DNA of 64,000 nucleotides from a virus (Duplodnaviria > Caudoviricetes): the IMG/VR virus record IMGVR_UViG_3300033066_000360, positions 1 through 64,000 of that record; one strand, given 5' to 3'. A program made the translations under genes and the position numbers. Below are positions 6,436-49,272 of this stretch, piece after piece; within the stretch, counting starts at the first letter, position 1; the number at the start of each line of letters is the position of its first letter. Under the pieces are notes generated by a model that did not search any database, was not told where the DNA came from, and saw only the letters and a program-made list of their open reading frames with translations.

Positions 6436-6729
6436 ATGCCAAAGAGAATCCAAAGAAAGAGAACTAAGGGCTGGAAGATGCCAGAAGGCGCTGTCTATGT
6501 AGGAAGACCCACAATCTGGGGGAATCCCTACCGGGTTAGTAAGTATGTAACTCACGAGAAGGCGGTTAATGCATACAAGGCGCTTCTTCGCTCCGAGTTT
6601 GGCATCGAGTCGCTTAATACGACTCTTCCAAAGCTGAAAGAGGCGCTTGCTGGCAAGGATTTGGCCTGTTGGTGTCCACTAGATCAGCCTTGCCACGCAG
6701 ATATTTTGTTAGAAATCGCAAATTCCTAA
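6436..6729 (+). CDS. DUF4326-domain protein
   Basis: VYVGRPTIWGNPY...LAGKDLACWCPLDQPCHADILLEIAN. Confidence 0.85.
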   Translation: MPKRIQRKRTKGWKMPEGAVYVGRPTIWGNPYRVSKYVTHEKAVNAYKALLRSEFGIESLNTTLPKLKEALAGKDLACWCPLDQPCHADILLEIANS

Positions 6730-8317: not shown

Positions 8318-8693
8318 AAAGTTTGTGGGGTATTAGTAATGATCCCAAGTCACTAAAAGTGAACAGGGGGGTCATAACCACACATTCATACAGGAGATAC
8401 ATGGAAATCAGAACCAAGAGCGGAAAGCTTGTCGAGATGCGCGGGACGAAGGTAATGGCAGCATATCGTCTCGCAAGCGACCTGCGCGCAACGGGGAAAG
8501 AGCCGAGTGCAGAGCAGGTGGAAGTGCTCCGGTGGGTTGAGACAACCACGGAGATGGACAGACTGGCCATGGCCGATATCGTCGGCAACAGCATGTTCAT
8601 GACCTACAGCCAGCAACTGGTGGCGGCGGTGTGGATTTGGTGTGATCGGGCCATTGAAGCACATGTGAACCGGCAGATGTAGTTCTGTCGGAT

Positions 8694-8731
8694 AAAAGGG
8701 CAGGGGAAACTCTGCCCTTTTATTTTTTTAT
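8694..8731 (+). terminator. intrinsic terminator with TTTTATTTTTTTA tail
   Basis: AAAAGGGCAGGG-GAAA-CTCTGCCCTTTT then ATTTTTTTA, after a stop codon. Confidence 0.75.
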
Positions 8732-9014: not shown

Positions 9015-9055
9015 TAAAAGGGGGGAGAATGCCGATCCCCCCTTTTATTTTTTTA
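9015..9055 (+). terminator. intrinsic terminator
   Basis: TAAAAGGGGGGA...TCCCCCCTTTTA then TTTTTTTAT. Confidence 0.75.
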
Positions 9056-9330
9056 TCTCCTGTGATAGCAGTATCCCCGTGTGGGGGAGTGCATTAATAC
9101 ACTAGGAGGTGTATTGTGGCAGACAACACGAATGTCTGGAGGGCTTATCAGCTCTTCGATGGGACGATCATCCTTCAAGAAAAGGGATCTCCCAAGACGG
9201 ACGATGAGAAGACCTTTATCTCAATCGTTTATGGTGATCGCCATACGGCAACTCTTGCCGCAGAGGAGATCGTTGACCGGGCCATTGATGCCCTTGAGGA
9301 TCGCTACTGCGATTAGCATGGGCAATGACT

Positions 9331-9365
9331 GAGGGAGGACTGCCACTCCCTCTTTTATTTTTTTA
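9331..9365 (+). terminator. intrinsic terminator
   Basis: GAGGGAG-GACTGCCA-CTCCCTC then TTTTATTTTTTTAT. Confidence 0.75.
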
Positions 9366-9680
9366 TCTCTTTGGATAGCTGTGTCATTCAACATGGCCAA
9401 AGGAGAAATATGTATAAGTCCGTGTCCGTTCCCAACCCCAATGGTTGGATCTTCAGTCGCTTTAGCGGTAGGAAGCGCCACATCAACGGGATTGAGCATC
9501 ACTTCAAGACCTTCCCTGAGATTGAAGTGGTTGGTTCCCACTATTGGGGAAAGAATGATGGGATGAAGGACTATCCCATTGGCAACCGGCAACGGTGGGT
9601 GAAGCGCCGCACGCAGGAGCGCTGGCAAGCAAGGGTCATCAAGGCTCAGATCCGCGTCAGCGTCTCCCTCTAGTTGTCCA

Positions 9681-9715
9681 GGAGAGTGTAGAAATACACT
9701 CTCCCTTTTTTATTT
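9681..9715 (+). terminator. intrinsic terminator
   Basis: GGAGAGTGTA-GAAA-TACACTCTCC then a T tract. Confidence 0.8.
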
Positions 9716-10204: not shown

Positions 10205-10252
10205 GGGAGAACTAGGTAGAAATACTTAGTTCTCCCCTTTTATTTTTTTATT
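10205..10252 (+). terminator. intrinsic terminator
   Basis: GGGAGAACTAGGTA-GAAA-TACTTAGTTCTCCC then CTTTTATTTTTTTAT. Confidence 0.8.
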
Positions 10253-11493
10253 TCCTTCATTGGTCAGAGGGACCAGTTTCCCTTGCACTCACCGTCTTGG
10301 TGTTGCATTGGTATAAATCTGGTTCCCGACCAATAGGAGGCATTCCAAATGTCTATCAAGAGCTTCTTCCGCCCCGCCAACACGAACAAGACCATCGCTG
10401 AGGGTCAGTCGGTGGAGGCGACGGAGCGGGTGCGCCGGTACGCAATCGGCGTTGATGGCCGCATGGCGATCTTGAAGGGTCAGAATGGTTACAATGCGAA
10501 GCAACTTCGCACCTACCGGACTGACAAGGATGTCACGGGGAACAAGGTTCTCACGCCCCTGTCCCGACATCTGGGCGTCCCCAGGAACGCGATTCTGGCT
10601 CGCGTGACTGGCTATGTCACGAAGCCGAATCCGGAGTTCCCCATGCCTGCCGCCCCCGAGGGTTTCGTGGCCCTGCTCGTGGGGATCAACGCGGTTTCGT
10701 TCTACGATGATGGGGAATGCGTCCCCGTTCACGACTCGACCGGCAAGTTCAAGAGCATCTGGACCTGGATGCTGGTGGCCAAGAAGACCGTGGAGGACTT
10801 CAAGGCGAACGAGAACGGGGGGTTCGACTTCACGCAACCCGGTACCAAGGTGAAGTTCTACCATGTGGGCGATTCGTCGGTGGTGGGCGCGATTGAGTTC
10901 AAGGCCCCCATCGGTGATCGCGTCCCCGGTATGGCGGCAGAGGTTGCCAAGCTCAAGACTGAGGGCGAGGTGGCCAAGCCGGAGAAGATGACCGGGGCTG
11001 ACTGGAAGGCTTTGGGCGAGTATCTGTCCGCCGAAGCCAAGAGCGCCAGCGGCTACACTTGGAAGTAGCCTAATCGGGGGAGAGGGCTAATAACTCTCTC
11101 CCCCACTCCCTATGCAAATCGAAAGCTCCGATCTAAGGAACATGACAATCAAAAGCGTCATGTTCTTCCCGGTACTTGGGTCTATCATCATCGATGGATC
11201 TAAGCACATCGAAGGATTTGTTTCCCCTGCTTTCTGGCAGGAAATCCGAAGCAGGCTGTGGATGAAAATCCCTATTTGTATTCAAGAGACAGCGAAAACA
11301 GTCCACGGTCCTAACGCGAACAAGGTCTTTCGCGCAATGGGACAATGGGTCCAATATGGTCCGCTCTCTTGGGTGGATGGGATGGTCTTGGCCACGGTCA
11401 AGGAGGACGTTCCATTTATCGAGATGAGTGAGCCGCAGAAGATGGCAGAAGCCGCTCGGATGGCGGGAAGAGTACGCATCATGGCTGAGTAGT

Positions 11494-11530
11494 AAATAGG
11501 TGGGCCAACAACCCACCTATTTATTTTTTA
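11494..11530 (+). terminator. intrinsic terminator
   Basis: AAATAGGTGGG-CCAACAA-CCCACCTATTT then ATTTTTTAT. Confidence 0.7.
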
Positions 11531-13346
11531 TGGCCGGGTCTGATTCCGGCCATGTCTAGGCCAACCTATTTGGACTAGCACATGAACCAAGTCAGATCCC
11601 TACCGGGCTTGCAAGAGTCTGGTTTGGCCATAAATGTGCAGGCTTTCGGCCTTATGTGCCCATTGGGGCTAAGGAGTTGTTCACATGATCGGCATATACA
11701 TCGAAGAGCAAAACATCGGGACTGTTTATTGGTTCCACCCCCATCAGGAGTGGAGAGGGGCAGTGGAGATGGCTCTCCAGCACCAAATGGCAATCGTCAC
11801 AGTTGTCAATGCTCCCGCCCTTTCCTTCGTCGGCCTTCTTCTCATGGCCCAGAAACTCCAGCAGAATGGGGAGTTTCTGGCCGGAAAGCTCCAGATCGAC
11901 ACAGAAGAGGGGCAGTACACCTTCCAAGGACGCATCTGCTGCCCATGCGGAGATCCATTCTGTCCCAATCGTTTCCTGCACATGCAACAGGAGCTTGGTA
12001 TTGAATAGAGGCGCGTAGGGAGAATGTGAGAGAGGGTGATACCACAAACATCCTCTCTCATGTATATCCTATGTGAGTAGTGGATTGTTGGTAGTGTTGT
12101 ATTTCCAAGGGATATCACAGATGTTTCTTGGAAATATTATGTAAAGTAGCGTGGTAATACACGCCATTAGGAGGTCAATCATGTTGATTAAGGTTGAGAT
12201 TTCATCAGAAGAGCGTGTGTACATTCCCATTGAGTTTGAGCAAGTTCAAACGTTTGCGGTCGATAACAAGGTAGTTGTGGTTGGGTATATCCGCGAAGAG
12301 AAGGACTTGGCGGATTGGCTTTGCGCGGAGGAAGATGACTCTCGTTTCCGGGTGGAAATCCATCTGAACGTTCGGCAGGCAAAGAACTTGATGGGCTTTC
12401 TTGAAGGACGGAAACCCCGAAAGCACGAGTTGGACATTAACTTCGATTGGATTGGTAACAGCTAGGAGGTAAATCATGAGATATGTGGAAAAGAGACTGA
12501 CCTGTTTGCTTTCTGTTGCGCGAATGAACGCTCATAGGAATGGGCTGTTCTTTGGTGCGCGTTCGAATACTCCTTATGCGAAGGAGGCAAGGGAGTATTT
12601 GGAAAACGCGGAGAACATGATGGCGTTGGGGCTTTGGGGAACTGGTCTTATGTTTCTCAAGAGAGTTAGTCATCTGATCTATTGATTTTCCAGCGGGAAA
12701 TAGGAGGTGAATCATGAATGCTTTGATTGGGTTTCTGATACTGACAATGATTGTGTGGGCCGTAGCATGGCTTATCCGCATGTTTGGCTTGCCCAAGGAA
12801 TAGTATGTGGACTATTCTTATTGTTGGTGGGCTGCTCCTAATTACCGTGATTGTCATTCCTTGCGTTGTGGAGGAACGTAAGGAACACAAGCGCCGCAAG
12901 ATCTTTTGCGAGTGGGACTTGGAGAAAGGTGCTCGCTGGCAAATGCTCGGTTTGATAAAGGAGGACAGAGAACAAAGCGATGCAGAGTGGATCATTTTCC
13001 GGCGGGAAATGTTGAGGGAGAACTTGGCTACCTTAAGGAGGTTGCAACGTGAATACGAACAAGCTGGCGGAGAATTTCCGCCTGACAGCAAGTATTGAAG
13101 ATGGTTGGGTAGTAATTCGTGATAAGTATGATCAGATTATTACCCAAAAGCCCGGAACAAGCTCTGCTTCAATTGCAGAGGCGTTCATCGAAGCAGATCT
13201 CATCATGCGTGGGGAATACGTTCCTACAATGGAGGAATAAATGATTTATGTGATTCTCGGATTGATTCTCGGTGCATTGGCTGTCATAGCGGGATTGATT
13301 CTGTGGACAGCTTTGAGCAACAGGAATTTCTAGTAAAGGAGGATAC

Positions 13347-14045
13347 ATGAGAACGTTTCTTGTGGGAGGTGCAGTTCGTGATAAGTTGATGGGCATCAAA
13401 CCCAAAGACTTGGACTTCGCTGTTGAGGCGGAGTCTTATGAGAAGATGAGGCAAGGTCTTTTGGATCAGGGATTCAAGATCTGGCTTGAGAGTCCTGCGT
13501 TCTTTACACTACGATGCTCTATTCCCAATGGGCATTGGGGCAGAGAGTACGGGAAAGACGCAGACTTTGTTCTGTGTCGGCGCGATGGGATCTACACCGA
13601 TGGGCGTAGGCCCGATAGCGTGGGAGTTGGGACCATTCTTGAAGATCTTAAGAGGCGAGACTTCACGATGAATGCAATGGCTATTGCGGAGGATGGCACA
13701 TTGCTTGATCCCCATGGCGGCAAGGGAGACTTGGAACTCAAGCTCATTCGCTTTGTGGGTAATCCTACTGAGCGTATCTTTGAGGATGGTTTGCGGGTGT
13801 TGAGAGCGCTCAGATTCAGCGTAACCAAAGAAATGAAATTCGCAGGAGCAACAAGGAGTGCTCTTGAGTCAGATGATGCTGCGCGTTGTTTGGCGCGAGT
13901 CGCAGACGAACGCATTTATGAGGAGTTGAAGAAGATGTTTGTCAAAACTCGCACATCCTTGTCCTTGCTGAATGAGTTCCCAAGGATTAGGCGTGTGTGC
14001 TTTCAGGGCAAGGTTCGCCTAATGCCCACAATGGAGACTGTATGA
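13347..14045 (+). CDS. cca: class II tRNA nucleotidyltransferase (CCA-adding enzyme-like), compact
   Basis: LVGGAVRD, DLDFAV, DLKRRDFTMNAMA, EDGLRVLRALRF, VADERIYEELKKM motifs. Confidence 0.9.
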   Translation: MRTFLVGGAVRDKLMGIKPKDLDFAVEAESYEKMRQGLLDQGFKIWLESPAFFTLRCSIPNGHWGREYGKDADFVLCRRDGIYTDGRRPDSVGVGTILEDLKRRDFTMNAMAIAEDGTLLDPHGGKGDLELKLIRFVGNPTERIFEDGLRVLRALRFSVTKEMKFAGATRSALESDDAARCLARVADERIYEELKKMFVKTRTSLSLLNEFPRIRRVCFQGKVRLMPTMETV

Positions 14046-14298: not shown

Positions 14299-14554
14299 GG
14301 GCCTACCGGCCTTAAAGAGGAGGTAGTGTGACAACTGCTTTGAACAAAAGTATGGATACTGTCAAGCGAAAGCTTGACGAGTCTGTCGAAATGCGCTCTG
14401 CGTACAAAAAGAGCGTAACTGAAAGTAGGCCTACCGGCCTTAAAGAGGGAGTGAAAGCTCCATTGAAGCAGACAGAAACGCTTATTACGGATGATGCGGG
14501 GATCGACTTGGTTCCCGACTTGTCCGAATATGAATAGTGGCCTACCGGCCATTA
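14299..14554 (+). repeat. three copies of GGCC-TACC-GGCC hairpin followed by (C/A)TTAAAG
   Basis: Copies at 14299-14312, 14427-14440 and 14538-14551. Confidence 0.85.
14328..14537 (+). CDS. hypothetical protein
   Basis: GTG start after GAGGAGG RBS. Confidence 0.5.
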   Translation: MTTALNKSMDTVKRKLDESVEMRSAYKKSVTESRPTGLKEGVKAPLKQTETLITDDAGIDLVPDLSEYE

Positions 14555-14619: not shown

Positions 14620-15396
14620 ATGGATATCAAGACTTTTACTGTGCCCGTTCTGGTTGACCTGCATGCTGAGCGCCAGCCCGGTTTGCCGCCCCTGTACACC
14701 AAGGGTGGCCCTGCCGGTGATGGCGTGAAGCCGCTCGGTCAGCGTGGCAACCTCTTCGCTGAGTTCTGGTGCTCAAGCACCAACAAGGGCGAAGATGGCA
14801 AGCCGATTCCTTCCCCGATGCAGACGGTGCTCGGCGTGAAGCATCTGGCATACGCCAAGGGTCTGGTTGTGGACAGCGGACGCTTGAAGATCGAGAATGT
14901 TCAGGCGATTGATGAGGACGGTGTGATTCGTCCCGCAGTGTCGATCCCGGTCAGCGTTACCACCATTCAGGTGGAGCTTGATCCGACTCCCAAGCAGATC
15001 GAAATGGGCGCGATTGCCGTTACGGGTTCCAGCGAGAGCGCCAAGATCCTGCGCCGGACCAATGGCCGCGCTGTCGGTTCGCTCAAGCCTGCTGATGCTA
15101 ATGGGAAGCGGTATGCCCACAGCTTTGTGGTGCATGTCGTTGTTCCGGCTGAACAGGCTCGGAAGTTCGATGTTGCGGCTCGTCGCCAGATCGAAGTTAC
15201 GGACATGCATGACATTGAGGGCGCTCCCGGCTATGTGCGCGGCACTTGGGTTCAGATCACGAACATTGATGCGACTCTCGATAAGAACAAGGGTGAAGTT
15301 GCTTCGCCTGAGAAGGGCATGAAGATCGGCAGCGAAGTGGACAACAGCGGCATCAAGGCGTTTACGGAGCCGGAGTTCGTTCCGGCACAGCAGTAG
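14620..15396 (+). CDS. hypothetical protein co-transcribed upstream of the RNA polymerase gene
   Basis: AAGGAG RBS before ATG 14620; strong GC3 codon bias; acidic C-terminal tail. Confidence 0.7.
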   Translation: MDIKTFTVPVLVDLHAERQPGLPPLYTKGGPAGDGVKPLGQRGNLFAEFWCSSTNKGEDGKPIPSPMQTVLGVKHLAYAKGLVVDSGRLKIENVQAIDEDGVIRPAVSIPVSVTTIQVELDPTPKQIEMGAIAVTGSSESAKILRRTNGRAVGSLKPADANGKRYAHSFVVHVVVPAEQARKFDVAARRQIEVTDMHDIEGAPGYVRGTWVQITNIDATLDKNKGEVASPEKGMKIGSEVDNSGIKAFTEPEFVPAQQ

Positions 15397-15403
15397 TGTA
15401 GTT

Positions 15404-15443
15404 GGCCGGTGGGTAGAAATATCCACCGGCCTTTTCCTCTTTT
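15404..15443 (+). terminator. intrinsic terminator
   Basis: GGCCGGTGGGTA-GAAA-TATCCACCGGCC then TTTTCCTCTTTT. Confidence 0.75.
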
Positions 15444-15487
15444 CCGGTCAGAAATGATCTATGTAGAGCGGTAGCTCAAGGAGAAAA

Positions 15488-17980
15488 GTGGCAAAGTTCC
15501 CCGATACGATGACGATTATCGTCAAAGATACGGAGCACGATGGCTTGGCCTTCTGGAAGTGGCCAAGGAAGAACTACTGCACGAATCTCTTCTTCCAACA
15601 CGGGATAGACCACATCTATCTCGATTTCGGAGCAATCAAGAATCGTGACGTGTGGGTTCCCAAGCATTGGGATCGGATTCTCAAGTGGTTGGGAGAGAAT
15701 GGATATGGGCGGTACGAGTTGCGTGGGCATGGTCAGAACGCAAAGACCGGACTCATGCTCATGATTAACAAGAAGCAGCGTCATATGTTCGAAGCGCATG
15801 AGGATGCAATCCGATTGGGCGGACTGTTCGGTGCGCCTCTTTGGTATGGAGTGCAGAAGCGGAAGGATGTGATCGTGCTTCTCGTTCCCGACAACTGGCC
15901 GGGATGCGGAGATGGATACGGTGGAGCGAAGTGGCTCAAGTCCCCATTCCAGTTCCGCGCAAGTGCCTTCATTGGCACGAAGTTCGAAGAGGGATTTGGT
16001 ATCAAGGGGCAAATCGGGAACACCGTATACATCCCTGATGGAATCGACATGGTTCTGCCAATTTCCACTGTGAAAGGCCCAACCTTGGCCCTACTCAAGA
16101 AGATGGTCAAGGAAGAGTCGAAGTACGGTGATATGGCGGAATATCCGGCGTTCAAATTGAACAATCTGCGGATTGGTTACATGGCGCAGGCGAACAAGGG
16201 CAACATGCGAATGGGCTACATGGTTGCTCAACACTGGCCCGATTACATCTATGATGCAATGCACGATGATGTAGCTGCCGCCGCAGAGCGTGTCCGCAAG
16301 TTCAAGGAGGATCCTCTGTCCTACCTTGAGAAGGAGCGTGTCAGGGACGAAAATGGGGAGTTGGTGGACTCCTATCTGCTAGAGGATGATGACGGTGAGG
16401 AGACACAGGGCATTGAAGCCATTCTGCCGCAATACGCAAAGTATGTGTTCCGGACTGGCGATAAGAGCCTGTTGTATACCAAGACAATTGCTCGCATCAT
16501 CCAGAATCAGATCGCGCAAATGTCGCAGGATGCGATTCTGACTGGTGGCAAGAAGCTGCTCAGTGCAGTTGCCATGCCCATTCCAGCCCAGATGTATGGC
16601 AAGGCGAAGCTTGGCGTGATCTATCTCCATCCGAAGATGATGGGACCGTTCCGCGCAACAGGTGTGGCTGGTGTTATCCGACACCCGTATCCGTCTGAAA
16701 ACGCTGGTGTAAGCGTGCGAGTTGAGGCGGATCCTAGCGTCCCACTCCTGAATGATGCGGGACAGGAAGTGCGGAATGTGTGCTTTATTCAGGAAACCTT
16801 GCGAGTTACCGGCGTGGACTTCGACATGGATTCGCTTGGTCTACTGTCTGTTCCTCACAAAGACTCGTGGGAGATGATGGTTCTGGATCGGTGGGCCATG
16901 TTGCCACCGATTGCTACTGGTGGTGAACGAGTAGCATCCAGCGTTCCGCCGAAAGACTACATGGAGGCGTGGTGCAACGCCGCTGCCGGAGACATTGGGC
17001 TTATCACGAACTTGAAGAGTCGGCTTGCTGCCGCTCGTCATTGGGTAGATAAGTCGTGGTGGCCTCTGATTCAGGAGACGGATGACAAGCTCTCTGTAGA
17101 ACTGCAAGCCGCCGTGGATCAGGCTAAGCATAACCAGAAACCCGACAAGCAGGTTATCAAGGATGCTCAGGAACTGTTGGTGAAATTGAACTCCATTCCC
17201 GAAGATAGCTCATACATCCGTCTGCTTGGCAACAAGCCGGAGCGATGGTGGGCGTTCAACAAGGCAGGGAAGTTCAATGCGCCAGATCCTGAGGCGTTGT
17301 CTCTGCGGACTCCACTCGGACGACATGTGCGGAAGCATCTTCCGCTCATTCCAAGCAAGGGGATGGAAGTATGGGCGAATAGCTTCTTCGTGAACAAGAT
17401 CAAGGAGCGCCCCGGTCCCGGCTATAACGCTGGAGTGGCGTTGTGGAAAGAGATGGGAACCCATCTGGAAGTTATTGCGAAAGCTGGCTTCTACTGGGAA
17501 GAGGCGAAGGAACGTCGCGCAGACGTTGGGAAGTGGTGGACTTCTGTATGGGCGGAGCTTGCAGAGGGAGATCAGACATTCCTTGAGCAAGCAACCAGTG
17601 CGATCTGGCGCTTGGCGTTCATGACAGACGAAAGCAATCAGAACCGGCTGTGGGGAGCGCATCTGCCCACGATCTTTCGGTTGCTTGAGCAGGATCTTCC
17701 GCGTCCGACAACTGGCGATCTTCCACCACCGGAGCCGATTGATGTTAAGGGCCGCTTGATTGGAATTGGTCTGAACAAGATCAAGTCTGATGCGATTCTT
17801 GAGGTTCGCGGACTTCGAAATGGCGTGAACGCGAGAGGAGAAGTCCATCAATATGTGCTGACTGACGACAATCCAGAAATGGGTTGGATGGTTGTTGACG
17901 CTACCTTGCCGGATGGATTCAAGGGGCGATTGCGTGTCAAGCCGCAATGGAATGCCTCTAGCTCGTTTCAAACTTGGTAG
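15488..17980 (+). CDS. single-subunit double-psi beta-barrel RNA polymerase (YonO / eukaryotic RdRP-like)
   Basis: Family motifs in correct order: GDGYG, PFQFR...GIKG, PISTVK, IRHP, DFDMD (codons 16817-16831), DIGLITN, AVDQAK. Confidence 0.8.
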   Translation: MAKFPDTMTIIVKDTEHDGLAFWKWPRKNYCTNLFFQHGIDHIYLDFGAIKNRDVWVPKHWDRILKWLGENGYGRYELRGHGQNAKTGLMLMINKKQRHMFEAHEDAIRLGGLFGAPLWYGVQKRKDVIVLLVPDNWPGCGDGYGGAKWLKSPFQFRASAFIGTKFEEGFGIKGQIGNTVYIPDGIDMVLPISTVKGPTLALLKKMVKEESKYGDMAEYPAFKLNNLRIGYMAQANKGNMRMGYMVAQHWPDYIYDAMHDDVAAAAERVRKFKEDPLSYLEKERVRDENGELVDSYLLEDDDGEETQGIEAILPQYAKYVFRTGDKSLLYTKTIARIIQNQIAQMSQDAILTGGKKLLSAVAMPIPAQMYGKAKLGVIYLHPKMMGPFRATGVAGVIRHPYPSENAGVSVRVEADPSVPLLNDAGQEVRNVCFIQETLRVTGVDFDMDSLGLLSVPHKDSWEMMVLDRWAMLPPIATGGERVASSVPPKDYMEAWCNAAAGDIGLITNLKSRLAAARHWVDKSWWPLIQETDDKLSVELQAAVDQAKHNQKPDKQVIKDAQELLVKLNSIPEDSSYIRLLGNKPERWWAFNKAGKFNAPDPEALSLRTPLGRHVRKHLPLIPSKGMEVWANSFFVNKIKERPGPGYNAGVALWKEMGTHLEVIAKAGFYWEEAKERRADVGKWWTSVWAELAEGDQTFLEQATSAIWRLAFMTDESNQNRLWGAHLPTIFRLLEQDLPRPTTGDLPPPEPIDVKGRLIGIGLNKIKSDAILEVRGLRNGVNARGEVHQYVLTDDNPEMGWMVVDATLPDGFKGRLRVKPQWNASSSFQTW

Positions 17981-17988
17981 GAGGATTT

Positions 17989-18363
17989 ATGTGGACACTG
18001 ATTTTCTGCAAGAAGGATGCTTGGGATAATCAAGAGGAGCGTGAGATAGCAAAAAGCAATCCTCATGTGCACAATGAATTTGAAGATATCCTGGAAATGG
18101 GAATAATCTGTAAAATTCAGTTGCATGTTTACCGGGCTGGTCGCGCAAGACTTGACCAGCCCAGTCATGCTCCAATGGAATGGAGTCATCCATATGTCCA
18201 GCGAACGGTCAGGGATCTCAAGAAAGATTACAAGGAGTCCATGAAGGATTTTATGTGGGCAGATTCTCAGGGATTTGCATCCGGGGATTTGGACTGTGAC
18301 AATGCATGGTATGAAATTAGAGATTCTAATGGAATACCTATTGACAGGTTCGTGCAGTTCTGA
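17989..18363 (+). CDS. hypothetical protein
   Basis: AGGAGG RBS then ATG 17989. Confidence 0.6.
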   Translation: MWTLIFCKKDAWDNQEEREIAKSNPHVHNEFEDILEMGIICKIQLHVYRAGRARLDQPSHAPMEWSHPYVQRTVRDLKKDYKESMKDFMWADSQGFASGDLDCDNAWYEIRDSNGIPIDRFVQF

Positions 18364-18369
18364 TACGAT
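18341..18369 (+). promoter_or_regulatory. sigma70-type promoter for the Y RNA array
   Basis: TTGACA-17 bp-TACGAT with extended -10 TGn; predicted +1 at 18376 coincides with the first Y RNA 5' end. Confidence 0.75.
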
Positions 18370-18996: not shown

Positions 18997-20397
18997 ATGG
19001 CTTCAATCAACAAGCGTGTAGTGTCAAAGGCTCCTGTTACCCATAATGGTGGACAGGCAGATCGAATCAGCAATTATGAAGCGCTTAAGCGCTCTGTTAT
19101 GACTGCAATGCTCGGAGAGAATAGTTTCTACGAGAGTGGCGAATCTTTGAAGGTTCGCATCATGGAACTGTCCAAGAAAGTGGATGCCATGAAGGTTGCG
19201 GAATTGGCGGTAGATGCTCGTGAGAACGGGAAGCTTCGCCACGTACCGCTCTGGTTGGCAGTATGTCTTGCTCGTAGGAGCAAGGAAATCAAGATCGCGC
19301 CACTCTTGGCGCGGATTATTCGTCGCCCAGATGAGATGGGTGAGTTTCTTGCTCTTCTCAAGGAAGCAAATGGCAGGGAAGTTCGTAAGCCATCTGGCGG
19401 CATCAAGCTTCCCTCACAGGTCCGCAAGGGTTTGGCGCTTTCTTTTGCTGGATTCAATGAATACCAGCTTGCAAAGTGGAAGGGTAACAGGGATCAGATT
19501 CGTCTGATTGATGTTCTCCGCATGGTTCGCCCAGTTCCCGACAATGAAGACATGGCGGCTCTCTGGAAGCGTCTCAAGGATGGCAAGCTAGCCCCACCAG
19601 ACACTTGGGAGCGTCGTCTCTCTGCGGGAGAGAAGAAGGAAAAGGTATGGACTGATCTCCTAAACGCTCCAAAGGACAAGGGACTTGGATACATGGCTCT
19701 CCTCATGAATCTACGAAACATGAAGAATGCCGGTGTTCCGAAGGATCTTGTTGCGGGGCAGTTGATTCCACGCGCTCGGAAGTCGTGGGCACTTCCATTC
19801 AGGTTCATTTCTGCAAGGGATGCTGTTCCTGAATGGAAGGACATTATTGACCTTGCAATGCAGGAGTCGGTAAAGGGATTGCCGCGTTTGATGGGTAAGA
19901 CCATTCTTCTTGTGGATCTTTCAGGAAGCATGGTTGGTCCAATCGTTGGTAAGAGCAAGCTGGATCGCCGTGATGCGGCTTGTGCTCTTGGCATTCTGGT
20001 TGATGGTGTTTGCGAAAATGCTGCGATCTACGGATTCAGCACAAATATCGCTCTCGCCAAGGGGCCAAAGAAGAATGCCAATCTTGCAGGTTTCGAGCTG
20101 TTTGACGCTATCCAGCGCTCAAATAGTGGTGGAACCAACGTTGGCTACTGCGTTGAAGCGGCGATTCGTGAGAATCCAGACGCAGATCGAATCATTGTCA
20201 TCACGGATGAACAGTCCAGTGATCGTGTGTCTTCTCCAAAGATGCGTGGTTACATGGTGAATGTTGCCAGCTACCAGAACGGTGTTGGTTACGGCGGCAA
20301 TTGGACTCATATCAATGGGTTCAGCGAAAACGTTTTGAGCTTCATTTCTGCTCTTGAGAATGGAGTTATCACAGGCACAGAGGATGAGGAGGAATAA
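18997..20397 (+). CDS. rsr: Ro60 / TROVE-domain RNA-binding protein with vWA domain
   Basis: THNGG, LRHVPLWL, FNEYQLAKW, TWE, YMALLMNLRN, LPFRF, VDLSGSM, GGTN, RIIVITDEQ. Confidence 0.92.
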   Translation: MASINKRVVSKAPVTHNGGQADRISNYEALKRSVMTAMLGENSFYESGESLKVRIMELSKKVDAMKVAELAVDARENGKLRHVPLWLAVCLARRSKEIKIAPLLARIIRRPDEMGEFLALLKEANGREVRKPSGGIKLPSQVRKGLALSFAGFNEYQLAKWKGNRDQIRLIDVLRMVRPVPDNEDMAALWKRLKDGKLAPPDTWERRLSAGEKKEKVWTDLLNAPKDKGLGYMALLMNLRNMKNAGVPKDLVAGQLIPRARKSWALPFRFISARDAVPEWKDIIDLAMQESVKGLPRLMGKTILLVDLSGSMVGPIVGKSKLDRRDAACALGILVDGVCENAAIYGFSTNIALAKGPKKNANLAGFELFDAIQRSNSGGTNVGYCVEAAIRENPDADRIIVITDEQSSDRVSSPKMRGYMVNVASYQNGVGYGGNWTHINGFSENVLSFISALENGVITGTEDEEE

Positions 20398-21155: not shown

Positions 21156-21734
21156 ATGAGTAGACTTTGGTTTCTAGGTGACGTACATGCAAAGTTTGAC
21201 AAAATGGAGCCTCTTGTCCGGAAAATAAAGGCTCCGATTATCCAAGTCGGAGATTTTGGTTTTGGCTTTGCGCCACTGCCAGAGCAGCCCAATAATCTTC
21301 GAGTTGTCTGTGGCAATCATGACAATAGAGGAGATACCTATGGGTGGGATAATGTGTATCGGCATTGGGATTATGACTTTGTTGCCGGAAAGCCCGTGTT
21401 CGTGATTTCGGGTGGCTATTCTGTTGATCGAGACAGGAGAACAATAGGCATAGATCTTTGGGAAGATGAAGAAATGAATCTCCCGATGATGCAGAGATGC
21501 CTTGACTACTATCGAAAAGTCAAGCCCAAGTTGTTGGTGAGTCATGAACCGCCAACATGGGTCAAAGAGAGTCTTGGATTTAAAGGATCTAGAACATCGG
21601 ACCTAATTCAAGCGTGTCTTGAGATCAGCAGTCCAGAACTTCATGTTTTTGGACATCTACACAAGTCTTTCCAGTGGGAAAGGAATGGGTGTCAATTTAA
21701 GTCTCTTGGAGAGCTTGAGTTGTGGCATCCCTAG
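21156..21734 (+). CDS. calcineurin-like metallophosphoesterase
   Basis: GDVH, VGDFG, GNHD, SHEPP, FGHLH. Confidence 0.85.
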   Translation: MSRLWFLGDVHAKFDKMEPLVRKIKAPIIQVGDFGFGFAPLPEQPNNLRVVCGNHDNRGDTYGWDNVYRHWDYDFVAGKPVFVISGGYSVDRDRRTIGIDLWEDEEMNLPMMQRCLDYYRKVKPKLLVSHEPPTWVKESLGFKGSRTSDLIQACLEISSPELHVFGHLHKSFQWERNGCQFKSLGELELWHP

Positions 21735-32329: not shown

Positions 32330-32707
32330 ATGGAGAAATGCACAGAGCCTTCCCTTATTAATTATGATGATCGCTTTAAGCTTTACCATCTGAGTGATGA
32401 CTTTGCATGGTTTACGACCGGAGATCCATACGAGTATTGTTCTACGGAGGACGTTGGTCGGGGAAGGGATCCAATAATTCCCAAGGATTCTCAAGATGAG
32501 TTCTTGAGAATTGCCTTTGATGTTCCATATGGAATATTCTTTTCAGAACGCAATACAATGGATTGTGTCAATGGAACTGCCAATTGGCTTGAAACGGAGG
32601 ATGAAACAGAAGTGCTTAGGGGGAAGGATATCCCAGTAAGCAAGTTTTGCGGGGCCATTCTTGCCAGCGGTGGTGAGCTTTGGTTCCCATTGGGGAAGCA
32701 ACTTTAG
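32330..32707 (+). CDS. hypothetical protein
   Basis: Similar in-window to 49269-49670 (AWFTTGD..Y vs AYFTTQ..W; ASGGELWFP vs KSGGMVYLP). Confidence 0.55.
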   Translation: MEKCTEPSLINYDDRFKLYHLSDDFAWFTTGDPYEYCSTEDVGRGRDPIIPKDSQDEFLRIAFDVPYGIFFSERNTMDCVNGTANWLETEDETEVLRGKDIPVSKFCGAILASGGELWFPLGKQL

Positions 32708-32715
32708 GGAGGACT

Positions 32716-33699
32716 ATGGGATTAGCATATATTGGAAAAGTGATTCAAGTTCGCCCAATTGAGGGTGCAGACAGGATCCATTCCGTTCAAGTTGTGTGTG
32801 GTAAGGGTGGGATTTGGAATGGTGTTGCAAGTAAAGAAATAGTAGAAGGCAATCTTGTAGAAGTTTATCTTCAAGACGCAATTCTTCCAGATGGAGAAAG
32901 ATTCGACTTCATGGATAAATATCACCGTAGAGTATCTATGAAGAGATTCAAGGGCGCTCCTAGCGATTGTTTGATTATGTCTTTGGCAGATAGTACTGCT
33001 GATTTACTTGCTAAAAGCGCGCCTCTTTGGGTGGGATTCGACTTGACCGATCTTCTTGGCGTTAAGAAGTACGAGAAAGAGGTTATCTATGGACAGGGAG
33101 AGATTATGGGCGGATTCACTACTCTCCTTCCCAAGACAGATGAACCCAACTTCCAGTCTGTTCCAGATATCGTAAGGGAAACTTTTGCGTATCCATGGAG
33201 TGCAACTCTTAAGTACGATGGAACTTCTTGTACTATTCTAAAGACCGATGAGGGTGAATTGCAGGTCTTTTCTCGAAATATGCGCATTCGAGAGGGATCC
33301 AATAATTACTGGCGTATCGTAGATAAATATGATTTACGAAATGCCATTCTCCCCGGAGAAGCTTTCCAGATGGAAATTGTCGGACCTGGAATTCAGAAGA
33401 ATCCCCTTGGTCTCAAGGAGATTGATGCTTTTGTCTTCAATGCCTTTTGGGAATGGAAACCGGTCCATTATGTTAGGAATTTCCAGAGAATATTGATTCC
33501 GGCAGCAGAGGAAGTGTGTCGATATGGCCCAAGAGATGTTCCAAGCAACGAAGAGCTATGGAAACTTGCAGAAAGAACATATAAGAATGGGACTATTGCC
33601 GAAGGGGTTGTCATTCGGCCACAGCATGCAGACTTTCCAAGAAGCACAATGGGAGAACGGCTGTCTTTTAAGGTAATCAATCTTCTTTACGGGAAATAA
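32716..33699 (+). CDS. RNA ligase (Rnl2 / DRB0094 family)
   Basis: N-terminal IRPIEGADRI-type OB module, PKTDE, motif I KYDGTS, VFSRN, MEIVGPGIQKNP, motif IV EGVV, motif V FKVIN. Confidence 0.9.
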   Translation: MGLAYIGKVIQVRPIEGADRIHSVQVVCGKGGIWNGVASKEIVEGNLVEVYLQDAILPDGERFDFMDKYHRRVSMKRFKGAPSDCLIMSLADSTADLLAKSAPLWVGFDLTDLLGVKKYEKEVIYGQGEIMGGFTTLLPKTDEPNFQSVPDIVRETFAYPWSATLKYDGTSCTILKTDEGELQVFSRNMRIREGSNNYWRIVDKYDLRNAILPGEAFQMEIVGPGIQKNPLGLKEIDAFVFNAFWEWKPVHYVRNFQRILIPAAEEVCRYGPRDVPSNEELWKLAERTYKNGTIAEGVVIRPQHADFPRSTMGERLSFKVINLLYGK

Positions 33700-42039: not shown

Positions 42040-42225
42040 ATGGACAAGAGCAAATCAAGACCCGGCGAAATGAACGGCAATGCAGTACTAACCAAAGATA
42101 TGGTGAGAGCCATTAGGCGTCTTTGGAAGTCCGAAAAACTCACCCAATCCGAGATTGCATACGCATTTAGCGTCTCACGATCTGCCGTTAAGCATGTCGT
42201 GAACAAAACAACATGGGATAACTAA
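42040..42225 (+). CDS. small HTH protein (homing-endonuclease-type DNA-binding domain)
   Basis: GEMNGNAVLTKDMVRAIR...TQSEIAYAFSVSRSAV. Confidence 0.6.
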   Translation: MDKSKSRPGEMNGNAVLTKDMVRAIRRLWKSEKLTQSEIAYAFSVSRSAVKHVVNKTTWDN

Positions 42226-43631
42226 TGGCGTTCGTGCAAATGGAGAGATACCTTACGGGGTATCTCTCCGATCATCCGGACCAACTCAAAACTTATCCGG
42301 AATTGGGCAAGCTTCTTAATGATAGGCTTGCCCAAGCCATTTTAGGGGCTACGAACAGCGGGATAAGTGGAGATATTCAGGTCTTACTTACTGAGGTTAA
42401 CAAGAGGCTTAAGGAGCCTGTCGATGAGGCAACCCTAGCCCAAGTCCTAAACATGACTCGTCATACCAATGAGTATGACAAGCCGGATCCAGAGGGCGCA
42501 TATGTAATCATACGCACTTCATGGATTAAGGAGCATGGGGAGCGGGAATACAAGCGCATCACCCGCGATTACGATTCTCAGAAGCTTACATTTGAAGAGA
42601 TGAGTTCCCAGATGAAAGCCGTAGCTGAACAGCTAATGGCCCTCAAGGAAACTCAGTCTATGGCTACTGAGAACTGGGATGTTATTGGCCAGCAGATGGC
42701 GGAAGAAAGCAAGAAGAAGTTCGCATCGAAGGACTTCTTGACATTCGGGCCATTGTTCCCAATGATTTCAGAGGCTATTCCTCAGATCTCAGATGGTATT
42801 TTGGTCTCTCTATTGATGAGGACTGGAACAGGAAAGACTTCCGTTGCCATGTATCTTGCCCACTGGTGGGGCAGGTCTAGCGGGAAGCGTATTACTTATT
42901 TCAATACAGAACTAACCGAAGCGCAGATATTGCGCCGATGGATTACCCGCAGGCATAGTAGCGCAACATTCTCCATGTTGGAGGAGGGATTCTGGGACGA
43001 AGAATGCCAGAGGATTACCACAGAAGCCAAGAGGGATAACGTGGTGTATGTTTCTGCTGGAAACTGGACTACGGATCAGATCATTGACTTTGCATCTAAA
43101 ACTGGTGGCCCAATCATCATTGACTACCATGCCATGTTAAATCTTGCCCCAGAGATGAAACTCTTTGGGACGGAGACAAATGCAATTGGTGAGTCATTAA
43201 GAAAGCTAAAGGCTTATGCACAGACAAACAAATCTGTAGTTCTTATTCTTTGGCAGACAACTAAGGCAGGTGAGGACAAGCAAGTTCTTTCCGGCGCTGA
43301 TGCCGCTGGTTCGAAGCAAATCGAGAACAAGTCAAACGTCATTCTGAGCGTGGATTTCCGAAGGGTTGAAGCTAATACCTCTATTCAACATCCTTTTAAG
43401 AATGCTACGATCATGATTGACGAAGGAAACTATCTACCCGTCGGCAGGATGAGGATTGCCAAGGGTAACTTCTATCCGCCTAAGACGGAGTGGGTGTTCT
43501 TGGACGACAAGTTTACGGTTCGCGCTGTTCCAGCAACGTATCGTGAGTATGCCTTTAATACCTTCAAGTCCGCCGCTCCAAAACCAAAGGAGGCATGGAA
43601 GGACTGGAAGACTAAGAGCAAGGAGGAATAA
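42225..43631 (+). CDS. dnaB: DnaB-like replicative helicase
   Basis: MRTGTGKTS Walker A, YFNTEL, IIIDY Walker B, ILWQ, GSKQIENKSNVIL. Confidence 0.8.
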   Translation: MAFVQMERYLTGYLSDHPDQLKTYPELGKLLNDRLAQAILGATNSGISGDIQVLLTEVNKRLKEPVDEATLAQVLNMTRHTNEYDKPDPEGAYVIIRTSWIKEHGEREYKRITRDYDSQKLTFEEMSSQMKAVAEQLMALKETQSMATENWDVIGQQMAEESKKKFASKDFLTFGPLFPMISEAIPQISDGILVSLLMRTGTGKTSVAMYLAHWWGRSSGKRITYFNTELTEAQILRRWITRRHSSATFSMLEEGFWDEECQRITTEAKRDNVVYVSAGNWTTDQIIDFASKTGGPIIIDYHAMLNLAPEMKLFGTETNAIGESLRKLKAYAQTNKSVVLILWQTTKAGEDKQVLSGADAAGSKQIENKSNVILSVDFRRVEANTSIQHPFKNATIMIDEGNYLPVGRMRIAKGNFYPPKTEWVFLDDKFTVRAVPATYREYAFNTFKSAAPKPKEAWKDWKTKSKEE

Positions 43632-48237: not shown

Positions 48238-48484
48238 TGGTGGACATGTCTTTGTTCCCCGCGCTCTCTTGCCCGGACGAGATGATACATACCACGAGTA
48301 CAACATTGTGCTTATGTCAAACACCGCGAACTTGAACTTTCACCGGTCAAAACGCTTGACAGCGGCCAAGTATTTGGTTAAGATGTATGGTGTAGAAGCG
48401 ATCCAAAATTGGATCAACAGCCTTGGGATGAAATATCCCGTTCAAGTTCTACGCTGGATGTCCAGCTTAGAGGAGTCAAAATGA
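48116..48484 (+). CDS. HNH-like nuclease
   Basis: RDKFRCVV...GGHVF...YNIVLMS...FH. Confidence 0.45.
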   Translation: MTPKQMRVKEKVAKRDKFRCVVTDWDSVSETWKNTFTQGTDGGHVFVPRALLPGRDDTYHEYNIVLMSNTANLNFHRSKRLTAAKYLVKMYGVEAIQNWINSLGMKYPVQVLRWMSSLEESK

Positions 48485-49272
48485 CAGAAGATGAGATGAA
48501 GGAAGCCTTCAACAAGAAGAAGGCAGAAGTGCATGCCTTGGCCCGAAAGGAAGTCAAATATAAGGTCCAAACCTTTAAGGCAACTACAGGCAAAGCACTA
48601 TTGGCCCCATACATTGATGCTCGTGACGTATTCCGCTTTTTGGATATGCTCTTTGGTATGGGGAACTGGCAGACAGAACTGGAGCCAGTAATGTTTGGCA
48701 AGGACGCTACGTCCCTTGCATTCGTTGGAACCATTAAGATCCGTTATCCGTGGATGACCGAATGGGTTTCCTACACGGATGTTGGCATGCTTGAAGGAGC
48801 CGATGATGACGTAGAAATGTCGGTAAAGGGAACTGCTTCTGGCGCTTTTAAGAGAGCCGCAGTTCAGATTACGGATGTTCTTGGCAGATTTCTTTATGAT
48901 CTTCCGATGGTTTGGATGGATGCTGTATCGCGTGATCCAAAAGACCCAAGCAAGTGGAAGGCCCCAATGCCTTGGGAAGTGGATGCCTTCATCAAAGGTG
49001 GCATGAAGCCTGCTCCAAAGATCAAGGATAACTCACCATCGGTTCAGTCCAAGACTGCTGCTCCCAATGTAACAGCCGAAAAGGTTTCAGAGAATGTAGT
49101 TGTTTCACCGCCCACTGAAAGCGAAGAAAAGCCTGAAAAGGCTATGGACTGGACGGAGTTCTGGGGACGATTTAAGAACGATGCTGATGGACGCAAGACA
49201 GCAAAGGACTTGAAGGACAAGAATCCGAAGCTTACTCCACGTGAGCTATTGGATCTTCTGAATAAGAAATGA
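48481..49272 (+). CDS. Rad52/Rad22-family (Sak-like) ssDNA annealing protein
   Basis: LAPYIDARDVFRFLDMLFGMGNWQ, KGTASGAFKRAAVQ, GRFLYDLP. Confidence 0.85.
   Translation: MTEDEMKEAFNKKKAEVHALARKEVKYKVQTFKATTGKALLAPYIDARDVFRFLDMLFGMGNWQTELEPVMFGKDATSLAFVGTIKIRYPWMTEWVSYTDVGMLEGADDDVEMSVKGTASGAFKRAAVQITDVLGRFLYDLPMVWMDAVSRDPKDPSKWKAPMPWEVDAFIKGGMKPAPKIKDNSPSVQSKTAAPNVTAEKVSENVVVSPPTESEEKPEKAMDWTEFWGRFKNDADGRKTAKDLKDKNPKLTPRELLDLLNKK

Follow-up and report, generated by a model that had tools for sequence, protein, structure and literature searches.

A rare family of predicted single-chain two-barrel RNA polymerases encoded in early-type gene arrays of uncultured phages

Introduction

Single-chain two-barrel RNA polymerases (RNAPs) have been studied in few families, namely YonO, gp64/gp96, gp66 and the QDE-1/RDR enzymes. 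YonO, from the Bacillus prophage SPbeta, is a demonstrated DNA-dependent phage RNAP (Forrest et al. 2017, PMC5467207), and P23-45 is the one phage with a demonstrated two-polymerase scheme (Chaban et al. 2024, PMC10770324). The crAss-like phage enzyme gp66 is packaged in the virion, and a dedicated cleft-blocking domain keeps it in an unusual conformation; the RNAPs examined earlier had all had glycine at position 4 of the catalytic DxDxD motif (bioRxiv 10.1101/2020.03.07.982082). Here we analysed an 830-codon open reading frame (ORF) at 15488-17980 on the plus strand of the first 64 kb (hereafter the window) of the 84,153-bp IMG/VR record IMGVR_UViG_3300033066_000360, from an uncultured tailed phage with 47% G+C. 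A first-pass annotation, made from the sequence without database searches, had taken the product for a compact RNA polymerase related to YonO and to RNA-dependent RNA polymerases (RdRPs), with an unusual DFDMD catalytic motif. We found that the gene is conserved and that its product is confidently predicted to be a two-barrel single-chain RNAP.

Results

Gene and conserved motifs

The ORF opens with a GTG codon and encodes a protein of 830 aa, P0001. Four close relatives, 47-69% identical, were retrieved by a word-index search, and only 10 relatives emerged when 1.84 billion representative proteins were scanned in full with HMMER. We then examined an alignment of 14 sequences (A2), in which identity goes down to about 20% (20-33% at the far end). 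Its invariant columns up to and including the catalytic motif are K86, R109, G141-D142-G143, K173-G174, K196, G354, R398, P400, D444, D446 and D448; C-terminal to that motif they are G504, V543-D544, K547, G643, G645, G759 and F827, while R157 and N508 are close to invariant. Every motif of the RdRP/YonO type that the first-pass annotation had listed is present, in the order given there, and nearly all motif residues are invariant in A2, indicating that they make up a family's conserved core and did not arise as chance strings. The ORF is a real, conserved gene, with the following features:

15488..17980, plus strand: RNAP gene (P0001, predicted single-chain two-barrel RNA polymerase), GTG start, stop codon included
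15478..15483, plus strand: AAGGAG ribosome-binding site, 4 nt 5' of the GTG; homologues align from residue 1-3
15908-15916: motif GDG, residues 141-143
15947-15958: motif FQFR, residues 154-157
16004-16009: motif KG, residues 173-174
16064-16075: motif STVK, residues 193-196
16679-16687: motif RHP, residues 398-400
16817..16831, plus strand: catalytic motif D444-F-D446-M447-D448, the three Asp invariant in 14/14 sequences, position 4 variable
16997-17011: motif GLITN, residues 504-508
17111-17128: motif AVDQAK, residues 542-547

The basic residues of the first barrel (K173 and K196, both invariant, and the nearly invariant R157) align with FR..K and K of YonO, and judged from sequence they would presumably contact substrate and RNA. 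The size of the protein is ordinary rather than compact, as had been supposed, since YonO has 839 aa and P23-45 gp64 has 616 aa.

Relationship to known families

P0001 showed no significant match to Pfam, PHROGs, NCBIfam or PDB sequences. It did not match Pfam RdRP (PF05183) at the gathering threshold, and its relative P0012 reached 20.6 bits against that family, below the 23.8 cut-off. No match was obtained when P0001, P0012 and P0015 were compared by tblastn with GenBank phages (50,697 records, SPbeta among them). Word-index profile searches with A2 and A3, IMG/VR scans with A1, P0013 and P0009, and a JGI metagenome scan yielded no further members. In the ESM Atlas, the feature neighbours of the polymerase were clusters named RdRP.

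Profile comparisons reached further. The A2 profile matched the Rpb1 active-site segment (R.P...NADFDGD) weakly, with E 0.2-0.7, and matched P23-45 gp96 with E 1.3e-4. With hhalign, A2 and YonO aligned collinearly over 312 columns (E 7e-4, at a probability of only 26%), and the alignment runs through DG, FR..K, K, RxP, DNDGD and IG..N. The alignment with gp64 covered 155 collinear columns, DYDGD and AVDRQK among them (E 5e-3, at a probability of only 7%). The aspartates D444/D446/D448 align with DYDGD of gp64, DFDGD of gp96 and Rpb1, and DNDGD of YonO. P0001 and its relatives are a new, rare, metagenome-only sequence family of an already known kind of enzyme, roughly equidistant from P23-45 gp64, YonO and the eukaryotic RdRPs.

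Predicted fold and domains

AlphaFold2 modelling with A2 gave a predicted local distance difference test score (pLDDT) of 85.7 and a predicted template-modelling score (pTM) of 0.81; with the 5 close homologues only, the pLDDT was 45. We identified 28 matches at E <= 0.001 by searching the PDB with Foldseek, all of them single-chain two-barrel RNAPs, including maize RDR2 (4e-13), P74-26 gp62 (1e-12), P23-45 gp64 (4e-12), QDE-1 (about 2e-11), P23-45 gp96 (2e-8), crAss-like gp66 (2.6e-4) and Arabidopsis RDR2. Structural alignment with VIA-align, which covered model residues 3-738, gave Z 15.7 for gp62 (455 residues, 3.7 A), 15.7 for RDR2 (580 residues), 15.6 for gp64 (525 residues), 13.4 for gp96 and 12.8 for QDE-1. 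No solved YonO structure was among the structural matches. The double-psi beta-barrel (DPBB) domains of p97 (CDC48/p97 N-domain) and Rpb1 align to residues 235-470 and 355-617. In BFVD, P23-45 gp64 ranked third, among proteins of uncultured phages, some annotated as RdRP.

The structure prediction that the first-pass annotation had proposed thus returned a double-psi barrel fold. The confident model, the top PDB matches and the motif order collinear with YonO and gp64 bear out the YonO/RdRP-like identity suggested there. We are confident in assigning P0001, on the basis of this model, to the two-barrel single-chain RNA polymerases, with the beta-like barrel first and the beta-prime-like barrel second. 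Its predicted domains are:

15488..15841, plus strand: N-terminal alpha/beta domain (residues 1-118), from the model; holds invariant K86 and R109; lies within the RDR2/QDE-1/gp64 alignments
15842..16222, plus strand: first double-psi beta-barrel, beta-subunit-like DPBB-B (residues ~119-245); GDG, FQFR, K173-G174 and K196, collinear with YonO
16223..16543, plus strand: helical connector or clamp element (residues ~246-352), from the model and alignments
16544..16897, plus strand: second double-psi beta-barrel, beta-prime-like DPBB-A (residues ~353-470); R398-H-P400 and the metal-binding motif; the CDC48/p97 and Rpb1 DPBB domains align here
16898..17407, plus strand: post-DPBB-A region (residues ~471-640); G504..N508, helix 522-548, then loop and helices
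17408..17707, plus strand: C-terminal helical region, part of the clamp (residues ~641-740); within the gp64/RDR2/QDE-1 alignments
17708..17977, plus strand: family-specific C-terminal beta-rich domain (residues ~741-830); G755, G759 and F827 conserved; covered by no PDB match

In the connector, an acidic loop (281-308) is of low confidence or disordered in the model and differs in length among homologues. The long helix 522-548 bears A-V543-D544-x-A-K547 at the bridge-helix position and is aligned with AVDRQK of gp64. The C-terminal beta-rich domain is a possible nucleic-acid or promoter-binding module.

Among the described enzymes, P23-45 gp64 and P74-26 gp62 (PDB 8F72, 8F5M) are non-virion, single-chain two-barrel RNAPs of long-tailed phages in an early-gene setting. 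They are the best structural match (Z 15.6-15.7, with RDR2 tied), and gp64 has the RxP, DxDxD, G..N and AVDxxK motifs in collinear order. However, there is no significant sequence similarity to gp64 (hhalign probability 7%), which is shorter (616 aa against 830 aa), carries DYDGD instead of DFDMD and lacks the additional C-terminal beta domain; moreover, P23-45 is an unrelated phage, whereas the present one has 47% G+C, 33 tRNAs and a Ro60 module. YonO is of similar length (839 aa) and gave the longest collinear profile alignment (312 columns), but it carries DNDGD and transcribes late genes, in contrast to the early-type block found here. RDR2 and QDE-1 (PDB 7W82, 7EU1, 2J7N; PF05183) share the architecture over residues 3-738 and the motif order, including an AVDxxK-type motif, but they have extra N-terminal domains and a role in RNA silencing, and P0001 has no PF05183 match. 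The phi14:2 gp66 protein (PDB 6VR4) is also a two-barrel phage RNAP with a bulky non-Gly residue at position 4 (DFDID); unlike P0001, it is a virion-packaged protein of 2180 aa with a cleft-blocking domain, and it matches the model far less well (Foldseek E 2.6e-4).

Variation at position 4 of the catalytic motif

Of the 14 sequences of A2, 10 have G at position 4, 2 have M, and one each has A (P0007) and S (P0011). The Met carriers are the window polymerase and its 69%-identical relative P0003, and in the nearest Gly-bearing clade the motif reads DADGD, indicating that Gly is ancestral and that Met arose once. Between the two Met-bearing genes (the window and the related locus L013) the proportion of synonymous differences (pS) is 0.77, which is saturated, and that of nonsynonymous differences (pN) is 0.20; their catalytic barrels are 78% identical. 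The Met lineage is under strong purifying selection. A decaying or inactive gene was considered and rejected, given pN 0.20 against saturated pS.

The supplementary table of Chaban et al. 2024 (PMC10770324) records variants such as DLDMD, DSDFD and DDDPD for further viral two-barrel RNAPs. Gly at position 4, the usual feature of the superfamily, is not found in P0001, and the feature is typical rather than strictly defining. Our survey of the DxDxD variants thus showed that DFDMD is real and rare, as first noted, but the meaning attached to it, an unusual subtype, was not borne out, since position 4 is G, M, A or S within the family. In our reading, Met447 replaces the usual Gly in this lineage and is tolerated there, and it is no sign of a new mechanism.

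Genomic neighbourhood

The polymerase gene lies in a long plus-strand block flanked by minus-strand structural genes. Around and downstream of it we identified:

13347-14045: CCA-adding-type nucleotidyltransferase
14620..15396, plus strand: 258-aa gene, family unknown, candidate accessory protein, syntenic in the close clade
17974-18363: 129-aa protein, directly 3' of the polymerase
18997-20397: Ro60/TROVE protein
21156-21734: metallophosphoesterase
23.7-32.3 kb: 33 tRNAs and a mini-tmRNA
32680-33699: RNA ligase

The window and the loci L013 and L002 share one gene order, in which the CCA enzyme is followed by the ~250-aa gene, the polymerase, a small gene and TROVE. The distant members (L010, L012, L015 and L016) have no TROVE or CCA gene within 10 kb, and a Ro60 association was therefore rejected as a trait of the family. 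In 8 loci the polymerase gene lies within one-directional arrays of small early-type genes. As the distant members sit in such arrays, made up there of unannotated genes, without TROVE or CCA genes, the family trait is that of an early-region polymerase and not of a Ro60 partner.

The 258-aa protein shares 55% identity with its L013 counterpart (E 2e-80) and 25% with the L002 one (E 1e-14). Library searches found no known family for it, and among the upstream proteins of distant members no similarity was detectable. A comparison with YorF-domain clusters in the ESM Atlas scored 0.84, below the reliable range, and was not used. The 129-aa protein is 100% identical over 124 residues to the product of L013:5927-6301, where the polymerase is 69% and the upstream protein 55% identical; the gene may have been exchanged recently or be under very strong constraint. 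The L002 counterpart of this small gene is a cupin.

At 6-22 kb there is no excess of sigma-70-like promoters (15 against 14.2 expected). The sole strong one in that interval, TTGACA-17-TGnTACGAT at 18341-18369, lies between the polymerase operon and Ro60, and the module at this promoter may be read by the host RNAP.

Further along the window, a DnaB-like helicase (42225-43631) matches the helicase part only of primase-helicase families, and a Rad52-like protein is encoded at 48409-49272. A 703-aa protein at 49654-51765 matches phrog_2426 (function unknown) with E 2.5e-109 and has a vWA-like DRSGSM start. This ORF was rejected as a DNA polymerase on account of its vWA-like DxSxS start, the lack of polymerase motifs and the lack of a PDB match. 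No DNA polymerase or primase was recognised in the 64-kb window, many ORFs there being unannotated.

Terminator-like and TACC-loop hairpins

A hairpin resembling an intrinsic terminator separates the 258-aa gene from the polymerase gene:

15404..15431, plus strand: 12-bp G+C-rich hairpin followed by a T-run, between the 258-aa gene and the RNAP gene

L013 and L002 carry such a hairpin at the corresponding position; the stems differ, but the AGAAAT loop core is shared. Because this conserved hairpin stands between them, the 258-aa gene and the polymerase gene are not simply co-expressed. We also found a cluster of plus-strand hairpins with T-runs to the left of the early block, at 8690-8731, 9022-9056, 9331-9366, 9681-9712, 10205-10251 and 11491-11531. 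The elements of this cluster share the near-identical tail TTTATTTTTT(T)AT, and two of them share the loop TAGAAATA with the hairpin at 15404. The interval 6-22 kb holds more terminator-like sites than expected (33 against 14.4), and the cluster is reminiscent of a conserved termination motif located close to the end of the P23-45 genome.

A different G+C-rich hairpin, with an invariant 4-nt TACC loop, occurs in a strand-specific manner, with strong enrichment on the coding strand, in the four largest loci of the polymerase family. In the complete record we counted 11 plus-strand copies and 1 minus-strand copy, where 0.69 would be expected; none of 100 Markov shuffles reached 11. L002 has 5 copies (0.19 expected), L013 has 4 (0.15 expected) and L010 has 5 (0.20 expected), and across the four loci the enrichment is 15-25-fold over the Markov expectation; the L010 polymerase is only about 20% identical to that of the window. 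Loops start at 6529, 11601, 14304, 14432, 14543, 21133, 23404, 27624 and 34872 in the window, and at 83486 in the record. Three copies stand in tandem:

14300..14311, plus strand: TACC-loop hairpin, copy 1 of 3 tandem, 5' of the pair of 258-aa gene and RNAP gene
14427..14440, plus strand: TACC-loop hairpin, copy 2
14538..14551, plus strand: TACC-loop hairpin, copy 3

Three tandem copies are found directly 5' of the pair of ~250-aa gene and polymerase gene in the window, L013 and L002, and in L010 one copy precedes the corresponding gene pair. Between phages, copies that occupy one and the same site differ in stem (for example GGCC, GCGC, GGGC and ACCC). C-TACC-G is invariant in 25 aligned copies. 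The fifth pair, which had not been used in selection, is formed in 22 of the 24 distinct copies, with 5 pair types; covariation scored 0.48, compared with 0.16 for shuffles. In most cases the hairpin ends 5-16 nt 5' of a start codon or ribosome-binding site; one copy is located between two tRNAs. An inverted copy, gagcGGTAgctc on the plus strand with the TACC loop on the minus strand, occurs at 15470-15481, directly before the ribosome-binding site of the polymerase gene. Hairpins with other invariant loops were seen in other loci: AGC in L015 (1250, 4840, 7376 and 8194; intergenic) and GAGC in L012 (5829, 10078, 11239 and 17220; some inside the polymerase ORF).

The TACC hairpin, a candidate cognate signal of the polymerase, could serve as promoter, as 5' stabiliser or as processing site. 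Phage N4 virion RNAP, a T7-like enzyme unrelated to P0001, uses hairpin promoters. It is tentatively conceivable, though we would not expect it, that the present family recognises the C-TACC-G hairpin in DNA as a promoter, perhaps via the C-terminal beta domain.

Discussion

The reading that we favour, with a probability of roughly 60%, is that P0001 acts by analogy as an active, non-virion, DNA-dependent phage transcriptase, a role that the first-pass annotation had also proposed and that best accounts for the early-region context. In this enzyme the beta-like barrel would supply the basic residues R157, K173 and K196, the beta-prime-like barrel would supply the Mg-binding triad D444/D446/D448, and a bridge-helix-like helix with V543-D544-x-x-K547 would follow. 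The polymerase may transcribe part of the long plus-strand early/middle block, including the RNA-metabolism and tRNA module, and phage transcription would thereby become independent of the host enzyme. The probable scheme is the one known from P23-45, in which injection of a tape-measure-fused RNAP comes first and a second, free RNAP is made after infection. The 84-kb record encodes a tape measure protein of 3002 aa (70769-79777, minus strand), and REPG...GDSDGD within the first third of this protein would match that scheme. The activity, the DNA template, the genes read and the promoter are what we infer here.

Several points weigh against this role. An RNAP in the tape measure protein was not confirmed by sequence: the N-terminus of that protein had no match to the polymerase family or to P23-45 gp96, nor any match in a PDB sequence search or in the genome behind L012. 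The structural neighbours at equal Z include DNA-dependent enzymes (gp64, gp62, gp96, gp66) as well as RNA-dependent or dual ones (RDR2, QDE-1), so the fold does not fix the template. The three closest phages embed the gene in an RNA-metabolism block with the CCA-adding enzyme, Ro60/TROVE, the RNA ligase and the 33 tRNAs. Lastly, Met is a bulky residue at position 4, where Gly was described as universal before gp66.

The structural matches and the neighbourhood would also suit an RNA-templated or dual polymerase of the QDE-1/RDR2 kind that serves the adjacent RNA module instead of acting as a general transcriptase. Such an enzyme would use Y-like RNAs, tRNAs or transcripts as templates or extend them, or it would produce double-stranded RNA. 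RDR2 ties as the best structural match (Z 15.7), P0012 comes near the Pfam RdRP threshold, the ESM Atlas neighbours bear the RdRP name, the synteny from the CCA enzyme to Ro60 is conserved in the window, L013 and L002, and the RNA ligase and the 33 tRNAs lie downstream. However, only the close clade has the Ro60/CCA neighbourhood, which is missing within 10 kb in L010, L012, L015 and L016, and all single-chain two-barrel phage enzymes tested so far are DNA-dependent, which makes this role unlikely. That P0001 substitutes for a primase, making RNA primers for phage DNA replication without transcribing genes, appears very improbable to us. Neither a primase nor a DNA polymerase was recognised in the window, primase-helicase families are matched by the DnaB-like helicase in their helicase part only, and the 703-aa neighbour is vWA-like; yet a primase may simply go unrecognised among the many unannotated ORFs, the polymerase gene is about 25 kb from the replication genes, and none of the two-barrel single-chain RNAPs is known to act as a primase.

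The remaining alternative concerns not the role of the enzyme but its state. The first-pass annotation had taken DFDMD as a possible mark of auto-inhibition or of activation by a partner: Met447 would lock the catalytic loop in an inactive form, as Ile does in gp66, until a rearrangement or a partner such as the upstream 258-aa protein released it. The ~250-aa gene does lie directly 5' of the polymerase gene throughout the close clade. However, the gp66 conformation depends on the cleft-blocking domain of a virion-packaged enzyme, whereas in the present family position 4 is free to vary among relatives that keep everything else. The upstream proteins of distant members show no detectable similarity, and the conserved terminator-like hairpin parts the upstream gene from the polymerase gene. 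Together with the purifying selection on the Met lineage and the variants recorded in other viruses, these observations do not sustain the earlier proposal, and we consider such a lock quite improbable.

The family escapes all annotation tools, with its 10 matches among 1.84 billion representative proteins, and it adds to the few single-chain two-barrel families that have been studied. Among living enzymes, these come closest to modelling the one from which cellular RNA polymerase descended, and the natural G/A/S/M variation at a 'universal' Gly offers a ready-made experiment on how far that position tolerates replacement. If the tape measure RNAP is real, the two-polymerase strategy of P23-45 would also exist in an unrelated, tRNA-rich phage. 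If the TACC hairpin proves to be a promoter of the polymerase, a hairpin-promoter mechanism like that of N4 would have arisen independently in a two-barrel enzyme, and the three tandem copies before its own operon would point to autoregulated or staged expression.

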